A stretch of 55,713 nt of DNA. Source: Candidatus Shapirobacteria bacterium CG_4_10_14_0_8_um_filter_39_15. Its GTDB lineage: Bacteria; Patescibacteriota; Microgenomatia; UM-FILTER-39-15. The notes beneath the pieces are model-generated. The model was not told the DNA's origin. It did not search any database and was given only the letters and a program-made list of their open reading frames with translations. Position 1 is the stretch's first letter, and every line of letters starts with the position of its first letter. Of the stretch, positions 30,267 through 41,966 are shown one piece after another. Both the position numbers and the translations under genes were made by a program. The stretch is from the NCBI GenBank assembly GCA_002784465.1, contig PFLE01000011.1, positions 69,966-125,678 of the forward strand, in the 5' to 3' direction.

Positions 30267-30306
30267 ATTAACGGATTAACGGATTAAAAAATTAACGGAT
30301 TAACAC
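30267..30306 (+). repeat. Octamer array (ATTAACGG x5), left arm of four-helix-bundle cassette 1
   Basis: ATTAACGG ATTAACGG ATTAAAAA ATTAACGG ATTAACAC. Confidence 0.92.
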
Positions 30307-30315
30307 ATAAGCGCA

Positions 30316-30705
30316 TTAATTATTCGTAAAATTTCCTTCCTTCTTTTGTTTTTTCAAATATGAAATAAAACTCCCGATCTGTTTTCCCAAAGAATCAAAT
30401 TTATTATTCAGATCGTCAAAGGTTTGTTTATTTATATATCCTAATGCCAAAGCAAAATACAGTTGACTTCGAACTTCTCCGGTAGATCCTTTTGCGATTA
30501 ATAAAAATCTTACAAATTCATTATTGTTTGATCTTTCGAATCCTTCTGCGATATTTGAGCTTATTGAAATTACCGCTCTTCTAATTTGATCCTTAAAAGA
30601 ATAATCTTTCTCAAACTTACCAGTACTGGATAATAAATAAACCTCTTTCCCGAGTTCGATTGACTCTTTCCAAATCGGCAATTCCTCGAATATTTTATAT
30701 TTCAT
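30316..30705 (-). CDS. Four helix bundle protein (23S rRNA IVP / Avd-like family)
   Basis: FEELPIWK, DQIRRAVISISSNIAEGFER and FLLIAKGSTGEVRSQL motifs. Confidence 0.93.
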   Translation of the reverse strand: MKYKIFEELPIWKESIELGKEVYLLSSTGKFEKDYSFKDQIRRAVISISSNIAEGFERSNNNEFVRFLLIAKGSTGEVRSQLYFALALGYINKQTFDDLNNKFDSLGKQIGSFISYLKKQKKEGNFTNN

Positions 30706-30712
30706 TTTTTTA

Positions 30713-30770
30713 AATTTCGTAAATTCGTAATCCGTTAATATTTTAATTCTTTAATCCGCAATCCGTTAAT
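30713..30770 (-). repeat. Octamer array, right (inverted) arm of cassette 1
   Basis: Minus strand reads ATTAACGG ATTGCGG ATTAAAGA ATTAAAAT ATTAACGG ATTACGA ATTTACGA. Confidence 0.9.
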
Positions 30771-37301: not shown

Positions 37302-38828
37302 TTATAATATACCCCACGAATAAACACTAACCGGCCAATAACGGGGTTGCACTGAATATAATCTATCTACTTCCAGTTCCTTTTTTAAATTTTTATGGCT
37401 AAATTCCCTTATATCTTCCGGCACCTGATCATCCCAACTATCCAAAACTAATATACCCTTGGGATATCGTTTAATTATCCCATTAAGGCTCTCGAGATTA
37501 TTAACTATTTTAGCTCCCGAAAAAGTTTCGATTGTTTCGATATCAACTTTTCTTAAAATATAATCTAATTTCCCTTCTCCCAAATACCAAACAGGTAAAT
37601 CACTCCAGTTTGTAATCAGTACTGCTTTGGGGTTATCTTTCATTGTGTTTTCAACAAATCCATAAACCTTTTTCCAATCGACCTCCGGGATTTCCTGCAT
37701 ATCCGCGTTAAGCGAATATTCTTTTTGTGGCGAAAAAGAAATCTTATTAGACTTCCATAATGAAAAAACGACGACAAAAATCAGGATACCAGATACCAGA
37801 TACTGGATATTAGATGCTGGCCCCTGAACCCTTTTCCTAATATCAAATATCAAATATCCAATATCCATCATTCCATAGCTTGCCAACAAAATAATAAAAC
37901 CAAAAATAGGATAGAGATAGCGGGTGAACGGTTGAAAAAGAAAATAAGAAACAATCGGTGCTTGAATTAAGAAAATAAGCAAAAACATAGTAAGTTTTTG
38001 ATATTCTTTTTGCCAAAATAGGAATAATCCGCCAACAAAAGACAAAAAACAAAATGGTAAATAATTATGGGTCATAAAAACACGATAATAAAACAAATTA
38101 TTGGTTCTCCCGATTGAAGACAATATAGAAAAAATTTGAACTTTAAAAATTAAACCAAATAATACTAACAAAAATATCCCTAAAAACATCCATTTTTTTC
38201 CAAACCATGAAGCTTTAAAGATTAATAGATAGATAAAACCGGAGAAAAAAATGGTAAGACCTAAACCATGCATCAACGATGCGAAAACACTACACCCTAA
38301 AAAACCCAAAAAATAACGCCAATTGAATATTTTTTCTTTAGTCAACCTATAAATAAAATAAAACCCTAAAAGATAAAAAAATTGTAAAGCCTGATAGGGT
38401 CTTGCCTGACGGGAAAAGAGAATTTCGATATTCATAAAGGTTATAAAAAAGGTACTTAATAATCCCACCCTCCGGTTAAAAATTTCCTTTCCCAATAAAT
38501 AAATGACTAAAATCGTCAAAACACCAAAAAATACCGAAGGCAAGCGAATAGCAAATTCGTTTAAACCAAAAATACAAGCGGAGAGAGCACTTATCCAATA
38601 TTGCAACCATTGATAAACTCCGGTTGAATAACCATTGGTCAAAGCCGGTTGGCCTCTTTCTAAAATCGCTCGAACAAAAATAGCCACATGATTTTCATCG
38701 GTCCAGAATGAATAATTATTATCCAGTCCATAAATTCGATAATAGAAACCGAGAATTAAAAGAAAAAACAAAATGATATTGGATACTAGATATTTGATAT
38801 TGGATATTGAATCATGAATATTAGTCAT
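37302..38828 (-). CDS. GT-C membrane glycosyltransferase (PMT/AglB-like); N-terminus encoded by a repeat array
   Basis: SFWTDE, EFAIRLPSV and FSRQARPY motifs. Confidence 0.82.
   Translation of the reverse strand: MTNIHDSISNIKYLVSNIILFFLLILGFYYRIYGLDNNYSFWTDENHVAIFVRAILERGQPALTNGYSTGVYQWLQYWISALSACIFGLNEFAIRLPSVFFGVLTILVIYLLGKEIFNRRVGLLSTFFITFMNIEILFSRQARPYQALQFFYLLGFYFIYRLTKEKIFNWRYFLGFLGCSVFASLMHGLGLTIFFSGFIYLLIFKASWFGKKWMFLGIFLLVLFGLIFKVQIFSILSSIGRTNNLFYYRVFMTHNYLPFCFLSFVGGLFLFWQKEYQKLTMFLLIFLIQAPIVSYFLFQPFTRYLYPIFGFIILLASYGMMDIGYLIFDIRKRVQGPASNIQYLVSGILIFVVVFSLWKSNKISFSPQKEYSLNADMQEIPEVDWKKVYGFVENTMKDNPKAVLITNWSDLPVWYLGEGKLDYILRKVDIETIETFSGAKIVNNLESLNGIIKRYPKGILVLDSWDDQVPEDIREFSHKNLKKELEVDRLYSVQPRYWPVSVYSWGIL
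37785..37865. repeat. Cargo-less inverted heptamer arrays, in-frame inside the GT-C gene
   Basis: GATACCA GATACCA GATACTG GATATTA GATGCTG, 18-nt spacer, then TAATATC AAATATC AAATATC CAATATC. Confidence 0.88.
38775..38823 (+). repeat. Heptamer array (GATAYTR), left arm of four-helix-bundle cassette 2
   Basis: GATATTG GATACTA GATATTT GATATTG GATATTG plus two degenerate units. Confidence 0.92.
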
Positions 38829-39205
38829 TTAGATTCGAAACCCTTGGTTTGATAATTGGATTTAATAAAAGCATTCAGGGAGAAATTTAAATCTTCCAAA
38901 AGATTAGATATGGAACTATAATCTTTTTCCGTAATTAAATCGCGATTTTTAAGTAGTTCCAGCCAGTGCAGAGATTCCAAAAGAGAACCTCTGGCATTAT
39001 AGTAGAATTTAATGCGGTCAAGATAGTGAAATCTTCCATACCCTTCGGCAATGTTCGCCCCGATCGAATCAATCGCCCTTATAAATTGATCACCAATTGT
39101 TTTTTTAACCTGCCAAGTGAAATTTTTATATATCTCCCAAGATTTATTACTTATAATCAATGCTTTTTGATAAATTTTTAAATCTTTTAATAAAATATGA
39201 TCCAT
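38825..39205 (-). CDS. Four helix bundle protein (23S rRNA IVP / Avd-like family); likely start MDHILL at 39205
   Basis: DLKIYQKA and DQFIRAIDSIGANIAEGYGRFHY..IKFYYNARGSLLE motifs. Confidence 0.93.
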   Translation of the reverse strand: MDHILLKDLKIYQKALIISNKSWEIYKNFTWQVKKTIGDQFIRAIDSIGANIAEGYGRFHYLDRIKFYYNARGSLLESLHWLELLKNRDLITEKDYSSISNLLEDLNFSLNAFIKSNYQTKGFESK

Positions 39206-39208
39206 CTT

Positions 39209-39243
39209 TAATATCAAATATCTAGTATCTAGTATCTAATATC
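39209..39243 (-). repeat. Heptamer array, right (inverted) arm of cassette 2
   Basis: Minus strand reads GATATTA GATACTA GATACTA GATATTT GATATTA. 39210-39229 is a perfect 20-bp inverted repeat of 38782-38801. Confidence 0.92.
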
Positions 39244-39550
39244 TGTTTTCTTTTACATATTCAATAATCATTTGTATCACTCCAACTACCAAAAACATAT
39301 AGGCCCAGATAGCCGATTTTTCAGCGACCAAATCCTTTTTGAAAATCAGCAAAAAGGGGCACATCGTCAAAAATATTAATGCCCCAGCAATGGAAACTCT
39401 CCCTTTAAATTTGTAACGATAAGCCAATATAGTCCATAAACCAATAAGAAATAAAATCAGTAAATCGGAAGTAAATCTAAAAACAAAAATATCAAAAAAA
39501 ATACCAATTCCGGCGATAATTAATATCAAAAAATTTTTAATGTTTTCCAT
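39236..39550 (-). CDS. Small hypothetical membrane protein (about 4 TM)
   Basis: 104-aa hydrophobic ORF in operon orientation. Confidence 0.75.
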   Translation of the reverse strand: MENIKNFLILIIAGIGIFFDIFVFRFTSDLLILFLIGLWTILAYRYKFKGRVSIAGALIFLTMCPFLLIFKKDLVAEKSAIWAYMFLVVGVIQMIIEYVKENRY

Positions 39551-39705: not shown

Positions 39706-39966
39706 TCATAAATTTTGGTAAAAATTTTCCAATCTTTTGTTAATAAATTTGTATCCCCATTGTCCCTTAAGATACTTCTCACGTCTTTTAGCGTCTTTCT
39801 TATCCAAACAAGCTTCGTAGTAAATCAACTTCAAGGGTATTCTGTGCCTTGTGGAAACGACTAATTTTCCACTATGCTCTTCTATCCTTCTCCTTAAATT
39901 ATCTGTATAGCCGATATATCTTTTGTTATCTTTCTCGCTCAATAAAATATAAACGTAATAAAACAT
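39706..39966 (-). CDS. Small stand-alone GIY-YIG nuclease
   Basis: YYVYIL..DNKRYIGYT.NLRRRIEEH and LIYYEA...A.RREKYLK motifs. Confidence 0.93.
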   Translation of the reverse strand: MFYYVYILLSEKDNKRYIGYTDNLRRRIEEHSGKLVVSTRHRIPLKLIYYEACLDKKDAKRREKYLKGQWGYKFINKRLENFYQNL

Positions 39967-39974
39967 CTTAAAAT

Positions 39975-41966
39975 TTATGAATTTCTTGCGACTTTTCTTC
40001 TCTTAATGTAATCATAACCTAAATACCCTAAACAGGAAAATAACGTCAAGCCACTAATAAATAAACCTAAATAGAAAAGTCGCTGGGGCCAAAATTCAAT
40101 GATAATCTCGTAATCTCTCTTACCACCAGCATCTTCGGGAGTAATATACCAAGAATTCGCGTATCCATTAACCAATAGGTGTCGATCTTCGGAAATTGCC
40201 TTCTTTCCCCAAGTTTCAAAGGTTGCTTTTTCTATAAATATATTTCGGTGAGTCCCTTCTTTAACTTCTCCATCAAAATAGCTCGCCACCGTCTCTCCAT
40301 AATTCTTTAATTCGTCATTTTTTAATCCGTTAATTTCGGAATCTGTTAATCCGTTAATATACAACTTCCATCCTTGATGAAAACTTTCGGAAAATACTAA
40401 GGTATAAGGGTCAACTGCACCCTCTATCTTAACCCGATATTTCGTCGGATTAATTCTAACAAATGTAATTTTTGGTACTACCTTGTCATAATTCGTTAAT
40501 CCGTTAATCTCTTTAATTTCTTTAATAGATTTGAGTATAATCTCCAGTTGATAAATTCTTTCAATCTTTAAGTTTTTAAATTCTACCTTACCGGAATTAT
40601 TGGAATTGGCAGGGGTATAAAAATAAATTTCTGCACCTAAAGTATTTTTGTCGGCTCTTAATATAACGTTAAACGTTTGCCATTCATCGTTTTTACCGTT
40701 TATCAATATTCTACTCAACACTTTCTCTTTTTTGATTACATCGTTTTCTTCTTTACGTTCGATCTTACTCTCCATGATTCCCACGCCTAAATGACTCTCT
40801 TTTACGGTATAGTCAAAACTCAAAGAATAAAGATTATTTGATTGCCAATTATTTATTTCTTGAAAAACAAGATTTTTGACATCTGGGAAAGGGTTCTGGG
40901 TAAATTCCACTCCTCCTTCTTTAACTTTTGTTTCCTCAAATTTCCGCCAATTTGTACCCACCAAATTATCCGATTCCGGCAAATTCAAAACTAATTGATC
41001 ATTACCTTCTTTAAATTCCCTTTCTCCCAGCTTTATCCAACCCCCATTTGTTTCAATTTTATCTCTGTTAATTTCTAGAGTATTTCCATTCATTCCTAAA
41101 TTCATTAACCCATCAATATTGCCAATAAACATTGAATAAGTCCCTTTCTTTGGTATTTTAAAACTATACTCTAAATTCCTTAAATCAAACGGTTCCAGTG
41201 CCTTGATTTCCCCATCCAATACCTCAAAAACTCTTTCCCAATCATTCTCGCTGGGTACGCCTTCAAATTTATCTTGATATATCTCTTCAATTTTTTCTTT
41301 ATGCCTCTCCCAATAAGCTCTTAATTTTATGGTCGACAAATCTCTCAACGCTTTAACCTTTGGCTTATCCAAATCCGTTAATTTCTCAATTTCTTTTACT
41401 GTTTCTTCCATCTTCTTTTGATAAATATCCAATATCCAATATTTAATATCTTTTTCTTTTCCCCATTTTTCGTATTCCGTTATTCTTTTTGAAGCAAAGT
41501 AAAGTTTTTTATCAATCAATTTTCCCGGATCTTTTCTTACCTTCCATTCCTCATATTTCTCTTTCAATCCCGCTAGTTTCCACCAAAAACTTCCCTGACT
41601 ATGCTTAACGTAAGGAAAAAACACGCTGTTTTTTAAGCTTTCCCTTTTCTCAATATCCAATATCAAATATCCAATATCCTTTTTTTCTCCTTTAATAAAA
41701 AATTCATCCGCCCTGTCTTTTAATCCATTAATTCTTGAATCTGTTAATCCGTTAATCGTGTCTAAATATATCCCCGATCTAATTTTGTAATCTTCAAACC
41801 CCAAAATATCAAGCAAATTTTTAGTATCTAAATTTGTATTAATTATGTTTTGAGGAATATAAAATAGAGGCAAGAAATAATCAGTAATCGCCTGCGCTCG
41901 TGAGTTAAAGAAAAAAAATGTAAAGAAAAAGAAGAAGATTATTGCAATTCTAAATATATTTCTCAT
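39975..41966 (-). CDS. Large secreted/membrane-anchored hypothetical protein (YfhO-like C-terminal region), rich in repeat insertions
   Basis: Signal-like N-terminus, INPTKYRV..LVFSESFH.GW, VNGYANSW and a C-terminal TM helix. Confidence 0.75.
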   Translation of the reverse strand: MRNIFRIAIIFFFFFTFFFFNSRAQAITDYFLPLFYIPQNIINTNLDTKNLLDILGFEDYKIRSGIYLDTINGLTDSRINGLKDRADEFFIKGEKKDIGYLILDIEKRESLKNSVFFPYVKHSQGSFWWKLAGLKEKYEEWKVRKDPGKLIDKKLYFASKRITEYEKWGKEKDIKYWILDIYQKKMEETVKEIEKLTDLDKPKVKALRDLSTIKLRAYWERHKEKIEEIYQDKFEGVPSENDWERVFEVLDGEIKALEPFDLRNLEYSFKIPKKGTYSMFIGNIDGLMNLGMNGNTLEINRDKIETNGGWIKLGEREFKEGNDQLVLNLPESDNLVGTNWRKFEETKVKEGGVEFTQNPFPDVKNLVFQEINNWQSNNLYSLSFDYTVKESHLGVGIMESKIERKEENDVIKKEKVLSRILINGKNDEWQTFNVILRADKNTLGAEIYFYTPANSNNSGKVEFKNLKIERIYQLEIILKSIKEIKEINGLTNYDKVVPKITFVRINPTKYRVKIEGAVDPYTLVFSESFHQGWKLYINGLTDSEINGLKNDELKNYGETVASYFDGEVKEGTHRNIFIEKATFETWGKKAISEDRHLLVNGYANSWYITPEDAGGKRDYEIIIEFWPQRLFYLGLFISGLTLFSCLGYLGYDYIKRRKVARNS

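Follow-up and report, generated by a model that had tools for sequence, protein, structure and literature searches.

How does a pair of inverted repeat arrays come to be translated in the middle of a conserved gene, and from what kind of sequence is it derived? This question is raised by a hairpin of 81 nucleotides (nt; positions 37785-37865) that lies in frame within a glycosyltransferase gene of Candidatus Shapirobacteria bacterium CG_4_10_14_0_8_um_filter_39_15. The DNA that was analysed, referred to as the window, is the 55,713-nt stretch 69,966-125,678 of contig PFLE01000011.1 (assembly GCA_002784465.1), and positions given without a contig name are those of the window. The host gene (37302-38828, minus strand) encodes a protein of 508 amino acids (aa) of the PMT_2/GT-C family (PF13231, PMT_2, E-value 5.7e-16), and the hairpin corresponds to 27 of its codons (322-348). 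We interpret the hairpin as the solo, cargo-less form of a repeat system whose full form is a gene for a four-helix-bundle (4HB) protein of the PF05635 family located between inverted arrays of 7-8-nt units. It is probably a non-autonomous pair of 4HB-cassette arms, which has been retained by a permissive linker and an open frame and which is kept like the cassette arms by exchange at the DNA level.

Structure and translation of the hairpin

On the plus strand, five GATAYYN heptamers (GATACCA, GATACCA, GATACTG, GATATTA and GATGCTG; 37785-37819) are followed by a spacer, and from 37839 to 37865 by AATATCA, AATATCA, AATATCC and AATATC, the C at 37866 completing the fourth unit. On the minus strand, the sense strand of the gene, the 5' arm reads GGATATT, GGATATT, TGATATT, TGATATT (37839-37866; codons 322-330), the spacer or loop measures 19 nt (37820-37838) and the 3' arm contains the five units of 37785-37819. 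An initial annotation, made from the sequence alone, had described five GATAYYR-like heptamers, a spacer and four inverted heptamers; the arrays are as it said, but the spacer is one nucleotide longer than the 18 nt it counted. Tandem Repeats Finder delineates period-7 arrays at 37785-37815 and 37839-37865, the latter with 3.9 copies and 95% matches. The degenerate three-unit pattern GATAYYNGATAYYNGATAYY, with at most two mismatches, produces 16 matches in the window where 0.17 are expected; none of 100 shuffles yields as many. The structure of the hairpin, two inverted arrays of tandem 7-8-nt units, is that of a cargo-less form of the PF05635-cassette family.

The peptide encoded by the 81 nt, DIGYLIFDIRKRVQGPASNIQYLVSGI, is flanked by the hydrophobic stretches PIFGFIILLASYG and ILIFVVVFSLW, in agreement with the earlier description of 27 codons translated in frame between transmembrane (TM) segments. 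In an alignment of GT-C proteins the invariant columns persist downstream of the hairpin up to W505, from which it follows that the repeat is read through in frame. The hairpin thus occupies a length-variable linker between two hydrophobic helices, with the frame kept.

The sense-strand RNA (101 nt) folds with -35.5 kcal/mol (z-score -4.24; none of 200 shuffles equally low), the antisense RNA with -17.8 kcal/mol (z -2.29), and when the plus strand is folded as DNA the hairpin does not form (z -0.62). In a synonymous control the peptide was fixed and its codons were resampled from the codon usage of the genome (n=500). None of the 500 recodings reached the -29.4 kcal/mol of the native 81 nt (mean -14.7 +/- 3.6), a control of the codon-shuffled kind that the initial annotation had proposed, and the number of period-7 matches is 52 of 74, versus 34.0 +/- 3.5 (maximum 44) after recoding. 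Since both fold and periodicity exceed what dinucleotide composition and synonymous codon choice produce, they are properties of the DNA and not a consequence of the peptide; periodicity and symmetry are a DNA-level feature. The predicted mRNA stem of -29 to -35 kcal/mol may possibly act as an RNase III or ribosome-pausing site.

Cassettes at the junction upstream of the host gene

Directly upstream of the host gene on the minus strand lies a unit that we call cassette 2. Its cargo is a 4HB gene (38825-39217; PF05635/TIGR02436, E-value 5.9e-26 for PF05635), the protein of which has 2RLD as its nearest solved relative (E-value 1.3e-6; five chains in the entry). The 5' arm (39209-39244) consists of AGATAYT-type units on the sense strand and overlaps the end of a conserved gene for a small membrane protein (39236-39550, minus strand). 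The 3' arm (38775-38809) consists of CAATATC-type units on the sense strand and encodes an N-terminal extension of the GT-C protein. The initial annotation had related the hairpin to this cassette, and indeed unit and orientation agree: the arms are identical at 22-24 of 27-28 positions, so that the hairpin is a cargo-less inverted-array structure with the unit family and polarity of cassette 2. The match runs through the periodic units only; the hairpin spacer and the cassette interior share short stretches under gap-free-extension alignment only, which are not significant.

In most orthologous loci (designated L plus a number) the gene for the small membrane protein abuts the GT-C gene directly. 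Among the 42 loci in which both marker motifs of this junction were found, 35 lack a 4HB gene and have the motifs 136-215 nt apart (mostly 154-160). No arrays are present in 33 of these 35 empty junctions, the other two (L045 and L078; 202 nt) holding degenerate inverted GATATT-like units. With a 4HB gene the distance becomes 572-684 nt in L048, L062, L074 and L110 and more than 1,200 nt in L060, L061 and L104; a 4HB gene is also located at the junction in L043, L077 and L093.

Arm units vary from lineage to lineage, in step with the lineage of the 4HB protein. In L043, GATAYTA arms surround a 4HB gene whose product is 93% identical to that of cassette 2; the corresponding identities are 61% in L062 (AATACTG/CAATATT arms) and 50% in L048, L077 and L093 (ATAGAAAT arms). 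In L074 and L110 the arms are built of ATTAACGR 8-mers, and the 4HB protein is 60-62% identical to that of cassette 1 and only 22-24% to that of cassette 2. Cassette 1 is found elsewhere in the window (30267-30770, minus strand), with a 4HB gene (30373-30687) between inverted ATTAACGG / TAATCCGT 8-mer arrays; its type thus occupies the cassette-2 junction in other lineages.

Between the window and L043 the nucleotide identity is 86-98% over the arms and the 4HB gene (gap-free windows of 60 columns) and 49-78% in the genes on either side; the two 4HB genes are identical at 355 of 381 nt and differ by 15 synonymous and 8 non-synonymous codons. The jump in identity is bounded by the cassette, which implies that cassette 2 was recently exchanged between lineages whose flanks are far more diverged. 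A junction lacking the cassette is seen in metagenome contigs of a relative of about 90% identity, in which 38741 is connected to 39257 through 85 letters instead of 515 (run X5); a similar joint (38718-39253) occurs in three runs. The 4HB cassettes are therefore discrete units, gained and lost at fixed junctions and transferred from one lineage to another.

The presence of cassette 2 also affects the host protein. The TGA stop codon of the 4HB gene overlaps the ATG of the GT-C gene (ATGA), and the end of the cassette (38775-38828) supplies the start codon and the first 18 residues, of which residues 7-18 are encoded by the downstream arm; cassette-free orthologues have a different start. Repeat DNA can thus contribute new stretches of protein in very small genomes of uncultivated bacteria; in the present case these are a linker of 27 residues and an N-terminus of 18 residues together with its start codon.

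Repeat arrays and empty cassettes across the genome

The genome comprises 815,648 bases in 21 contigs (97% complete, about 39% G+C), designated C plus a number, the window being part of contig C7. It contains 160 arrays of period 7 or 8, whereas each of three Markov shuffles contains 6-8. After merging, 77 of 139 arrays lie inside open frames of at least 120 aa (55%, versus 83% for random placements), and the arrays are hence depleted in open reading frames (ORFs), yet often translated. Outside the window GATATT arrays are located at C5:52339, C19:109848 and C12:36180.

The family PF05635 ("23S rRNA intervening sequence protein"; TIGR02436, "four helix bundle protein") has 14 matches in the genome. 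These genes are flanked by inverted arrays whose 7-8-nt unit changes from gene to gene, and at least three inverted 8-mers are common to both flanks in 9 of the 14, against 6.3% of 3000 random placements. The duplex energy of the flanks was dropped as a measure of arm pairing; as random placements already average -36 kcal/mol, the observation that sense was favoured over antisense in 14 of 21 cases is uninformative.

The clearest dispersed family of empty cassettes in the genome belongs to a cassette of the AAAATTC family (C20:47961-48385), whose 4HB gene has an internal TAA. The sequence at C12:16705-16798 matches both of its arms (32/35 and 46/50), with 9 nt replacing 340; C15:25657-25742 is another cargo-less copy (17/18 and 44/50), and C18:6373-6424 a lone arm (46/52). 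Arm identities within the family are 88-94%, and because the four sequences share non-periodic irregularities they must be copies rather than convergent arrays. Cargo-less cassette copies thus exist on other contigs of the genome. The initial annotation considered the hairpin the best evidence that the inverted-array unit behaves as an element. The unit does behave in that manner, but the better evidence is provided by the filled and empty junctions, the different cassette types at a given junction, the identity jump bounded by the cassette and these dispersed empty copies.

Four-helix-bundle cassettes in other genomes

Including the present one, 61 genomes of the class were screened, and 45 contain matches to PF05635 (0-17 per genome). 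Twelve loci were fetched; nine have at least three shared inverted 8-mers, and by eye arrays are recognisable in 11, each with its own unit. A further 80 PF05635 loci were taken from Bacteroidota, Verrucomicrobiota, Clostridia, Chloroflexota, Planctomycetota, Gammaproteobacteria, Acidobacteriota and one archaeon. At least three shared inverted 8-mers were present in 54 of these 80 loci, versus 6.4% with mismatched flanks, and in 57 loci one flank or both contain a tandem array, almost always with a period of 7. Lineage-specific units with the G-rich arm upstream are seen for instance in L146, L151, L194, L204 and L205 (among L127-L206), and in L150 (Grimontia hollisae) more than 20 GGACCCA units lie downstream of the PF05635 gene.

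The arms have a clear polarity. Read on the sense strand of the gene, the upstream arm contains more G than C in 54 and more C than G in 12 of 69 cassettes (p 1.7e-7). The GT-C hairpin has the G-rich arm first on the sense strand of its host, which is the polarity of most cassettes. Arm 7-mers are shared in 4 of 6 pairs of cassettes when the 4HB proteins are at least 80% identical, in 5 of 24 at 60-80% and in about 2% below that; arm turnover is faster than that of the 4HB proteins.

To our knowledge, the large family annotated as "four helix bundle / 23S rRNA intervening sequence protein" has gone without an established function since the 1990s. The locus studied here offers a testable anatomy for this family, in which a gene is combined with polar inverted heptamer arrays and the arms are specific to the protein lineage, with insertion and replacement at fixed junctions, transfer between lineages, and gene-less hairpins that are dispersed and even translated. 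In the searched literature we found no paper on tandem heptamer arms around PF05635/S23p genes; a database curator's note on them may exist. The hairpin is one visible piece of this broader, apparently undescribed regularity of 4HB genes with heptamer-array arms.

Age and turnover of the hairpin site

A search for orthologues of the host gene yielded 185 relatives, with identities reaching 65-67%, and 79 metagenome loci were fetched, 55 of which contain both anchor motifs around the hairpin site; the other 24 are mostly contig ends. The linker is hypervariable, the extracted stretch ranging from 48 to 219 nt. GATATT-type inverted arrays are present in 12 of the 55 loci (L035, L036, L039, L040, L041, L042, L055, L074, L077, L100, L101 and L103), with a varying number of units, extra nested hairpins and extracted stretches of 102-219 nt. 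Decayed remnants of arrays are found in L037, L043, L044, L046, L049, L050 and L073, AATTTC-type arrays with GC-rich mini-palindromes in five loci (L059, L060, L061, L099 and L104), and CAGTATT arrays in L062; both of the latter units, which belong to other clades, are one substitution away from the GATATT-type unit. About half of the metagenome loci and three species-representative genomes are free of arrays at the site.

In a quick maximum-likelihood tree (IQ-TREE, hairpin site masked, 51 rows) the closest relative of the window is L038, which has no arrays and an unrelated stretch of 66 nt at the site. Both arms are present in 7 rows of the surrounding 11-row clade and in 10 of all 51, a distribution for which at least six changes are needed, and the structure is kept across orthologues of 50-67% identity. 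Long occupancy with continuing expansion, decay and loss is the simplest reading of the site; repeated seeding of arrays at a hot spot is compatible with the same distribution. The hairpin is old at this site, and it keeps changing as units are added or lost and further insertions nest within it. The absence of the segment from part of the orthologues, or its replacement by unrelated sequence, is as the initial annotation expected of an element, and the similarity of orthologous peptides accompanies the periodicity of the DNA; a peptide conserved in the absence of the 7-nt periodicity was not seen among the orthologues.

The initial annotation also suggested that the hairpin could be the scar left by loss of a cargo gene, i.e. 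that a 4HB gene once resided between its arms and was later deleted, leaving arms and spacer. Such losses have parallels in the empty copies elsewhere in the genome, in which both arms of a gene-bearing cassette are matched, and in the adjacent junction, free of a cassette in the relative of about 90% identity; the short stretches shared by spacer and cassette interior also point in this direction, although they are likely due to chance. At the hairpin site itself, however, neither a stop codon nor a cargo gene was found in any of the 55 loci, the nine 4HB ORFs in these loci all being located upstream of the GT-C gene. Moreover, a 4HB gene would split a conserved gene whose downstream half is maintained through W505. 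We therefore regard an excision scar as very unlikely.

The variation in length might suggest a contingency tract, in which gain or loss of a heptamer shifts the frame and switches a surface glycosyltransferase off and on (phase variation). The tracts do lie inside a cell-envelope gene, and five orthologue contigs (L071, L072, L076, L081 and L087) stop exactly at the site, as variable repeats would cause; the arrays account for assembly breaks at such sites. Against this, the tracts are short, with 4-5 imperfect units, and their inverted symmetry plays no part in slippage switching. No indels were observed in the contigs of the same strain, in which the hairpin is intact in runs X5, X7 and X9 (positions 37726-37796 are uncovered in X10); the contigs of these four runs are consensus sequences that drop rare variants, so that rare length variants or excision are beyond their reach. 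A role in phase variation appears highly improbable. In the same four aquifer and groundwater runs the summed contig depth at 37797-37867, over the AATATC arm, is 14-64 times that of neighbouring bins (539 versus about 8 in X5), because other contigs of the community share arrays of this unit; many other genomes of the community bear AATATC-unit arrays.

Alternatively, the hairpin could be a selected functional element of the GT-C gene, either as an mRNA hairpin that serves as RNase III site or as translational pause between membrane helices, or through a useful peptide. The sense RNA folds far better than the antisense RNA in the window, and among the ten orthologues with both arms the sense fold is better by more than 10 kcal/mol in six, equal in three and reversed in one. 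In addition, the genome contains a gene for RNase III, and the persistence of the structure in diverged orthologues is what selection would produce. On the other hand, the closest relative and about half of the orthologues have the structure in decayed form or not at all, its length and content vary, the peptide is conserved no more than the repeats impose, and arm mismatches in 28 cassettes display no G.U wobble bias (32 versus 34 transitions), which means that a sense-strand RNA stem is not specifically supported. On balance we consider a selected function unlikely.

Origin of the hairpin

As cassette 2 is recent and the hairpin is old, the hairpin is neither a scar of cassette 2 nor a recent copy of it in the manner of a miniature inverted-repeat transposable element (MITE); it is at most a relative belonging to the same cassette lineage. 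The initial proposal of a MITE-like derivative of cassette 2 does not agree with the wide distribution of the hairpin in the clade, or with L039 and L041, where it is found beside an empty junction. The hairpin does share with MITEs the terminal inverted repeats, the small size and the lack of a transposase, but many copies with a conserved interior, a clean empty site and a convincing target-site duplication, as for a typical MITE, were not found, the spacer being unique in the genome.

The unit of the array inside the gene equals that of the local cassette arms in three lineages: the window (GATATT/AATATC), L062 (CAGTATT) and the L061 group (AATTTCC). This correspondence indicates sequence exchange or shared recognition. 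The arms of a cassette belonging to the GATATT/AATATC lineage may long ago have seeded the hairpin, and possible routes are trans-mobilisation, template switching and gene conversion. The survival of the hairpin would be due to a unit that is free of stop codons in the reading frame concerned and to a linker that accommodates insertions. A gene-bearing version would split the host gene, and presumably only the empty form can persist at this site. Repeated exchange or shared recognition would then hold its units close to those of the local cassette arms. How cassettes and hairpins move is deduced from the sequences, and the 4HB protein is a possible driver.

The arrays could also have arisen locally without any element, if replication slippage and intrastrand template switching acted on a permissive linker; their likeness to the cassette arms would then be due to later gene conversion or to chance. 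Consistent with this, the site is a hot spot for differing short-repeat arrays and nested palindromes in different clades, the unit variants are single substitutions apart, as concerted evolution in place predicts, more than half of the merged arrays of the genome lie inside open frames, and mobility of the GT-C copy was not observed in the same-strain contigs of three runs or in the form of further spacer copies. Such an origin leaves unexplained, however, that in-gene and cassette units correspond in three lineages with three different units and that both hairpin arms have the cassette polarity. Furthermore, the near-complete lack of arrays in empty junctions argues that arrays arrive with cassettes, and the dispersed empty copies display arm pairs copied to new places. 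A local origin is fairly unlikely.

Derivation from cassette arms, the explanation that we favour, has a number of observations against it. The spacer is single copy in the genome (at most four substitutions allowed), except for one chance match with four mismatches. Near both ends of the hairpin only the 4-nt ATCA is shared, and no convincing target-site duplication was detected. No orthologue provides a clean empty site; the array-free ones are merely 21-39 nt shorter over the extracted stretch, as a result of which the boundaries of the hairpin are not definable. The sole cargo-less structure at the cassette-2 junction, that of L045 and L078, is degenerate, folds like shuffles (z -1.4) and is a weak hint at best. 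In L074 and L077 the in-gene unit is GATATT and the adjacent cassette is of another type, and in L039, L041 and L100 the hairpin adjoins an empty junction. No mobility event was seen in the three runs with contigs spanning the hairpin, and the mentioned absence of a G.U bias gives no support from the RNA stem. No reverse transcriptase (RVT_1) match was found in the genome, of which 97% is covered, and we know of no recombinase or nuclease activity of 4HB proteins. Finally, given the fast turnover of arms, the long persistence of GATATT at the hairpin site is somewhat surprising; it could be due to coding constraint or repeated seeding instead.

Comparison with known repeat systems

In the system of repetitive extragenic palindromic doublets forming hairpins (REPINs) and their associated tyrosine transposases (RAYTs), inverted copies of a gene-specific repeat lie on both sides of a single small gene. 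Every paralogue comes with a separate repeat family, and hairpin doublets without the gene are scattered over the genome. The 4HB genes are similarly flanked by their own inverted repeat, with gene-less hairpins dispersed in the genome. The flanked gene, however, encodes a four-helix bundle (PF05635) and not an HUH/Y1 transposase, the two proteins being unrelated, and the repeats are tandem heptamers rather than GC-rich palindromes that occur singly. Separate from the cassettes, the genome contains what looks like an ordinary RAYT-like system, made up of 13 PF01797 (Y1_Tnp) genes, with open frames of 224-272 aa, most of which have their own, different GC-rich palindrome on both sides. These genes are not associated with heptamer arrays, and their system accounts for the GC-rich mini-hairpins nested in some of the GT-C orthologue arrays. 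Examples outside the window are C15:19021-19287, C3:5337-5609, C7:7421-7660, C7:61742-61966 and C7:68793-69035, the last ending about 930 nt before the window. A diversity-generating retroelement, with an Avd-like 4HB protein, was rejected for lack of an RVT_1 match in the 97% complete genome.

The 23S rRNA intervening sequences of Leptospira and Coxiella contain an S23p/PF05635 ORF, the same protein family as the cargo of the cassettes, and like the cassettes have this ORF between stem-capable terminal inverted repeats, with mobility and horizontal transfer suspected. One report describes a 28-bp stem with RNase III cleavage within it and an ORF hypothesised to serve mobility (PMC4990558). 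The cassettes studied here differ in that they lie between or inside protein-coding genes and not in rRNA helices (the hairpin itself being inside a protein-coding gene), that their arms are tandem 7-8-nt arrays, and that cargo-less forms are translated.

Rickettsia palindromic elements are, according to a review of MITEs, short palindromic repeats that sit within the reading frames of unrelated genes, to whose products they add peptide segments (PMC10969869). On that description, the in-frame translation of a palindromic repeat is shared with the GT-C hairpin. Those elements form a conserved family of about 150 bp with many copies, whereas the hairpin has 81 nt, a unique spacer, tandem-unit arms and a gene-bearing relative next door, and does not belong to such a family.

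Short tandemly repeated repetitive sequences of cyanobacteria are heptamers in tandem direct repeats. A report on the TAACTGA repeat of Beggiatoaceae describes abundant 7-nt tandem direct repeats, mostly intergenic and some inside ORFs, with a single inverted set; its text contains none of the terms "intervening sequence", "S23" or "four helix" (PMC4679880). Both families have been described as direct repeats upstream of genes; the arrays here are inverted pairs.

It is conceivable, and we put it forward tentatively, that 4HB genes and polar inverted heptamer arrays constitute an undescribed pan-bacterial selfish or regulatory module. Each 4HB protein, possibly a pentamer, might recognise its own tandem units on one strand and promote the copying or exchange of arm pairs, in a manner comparable to the action of a RAYT on REPINs. 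In that case the intervening sequences of 23S rRNA would be a special case that landed in rRNA, and solo hairpins would be non-autonomous progeny, able to become linkers or N-terminal segments of proteins.

Other features near the locus

Two genes upstream of cassette 2, a stand-alone GIY-YIG domain protein of 86 aa is encoded (39706-39966, minus strand; PF01541, E-value 1.9e-15), a possible nuclease. It is preceded by an ORF of 663 aa (39975-41966, minus strand) that has no Pfam or NCBIfam match and contains solo in-frame arrays of both cassette unit families, all of one polarity. Two arrays are of the AATATC type, the unit family of cassette 2 and the hairpin (41424-41450 and 41651-41679, minus strand), and encode DIGYLILDI and DIKYWILDI. 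Three are of the TAATCCGT type (40302-40358, 40489-40526 and 41720-41757), with peptides of the kind INGLTDS. Upstream of the GT-C orthologue of L061 (1601-1880), a block of about 150 nt with TATAGCGT-type and GATAAGA-type 8-mer arrays is duplicated in tandem.

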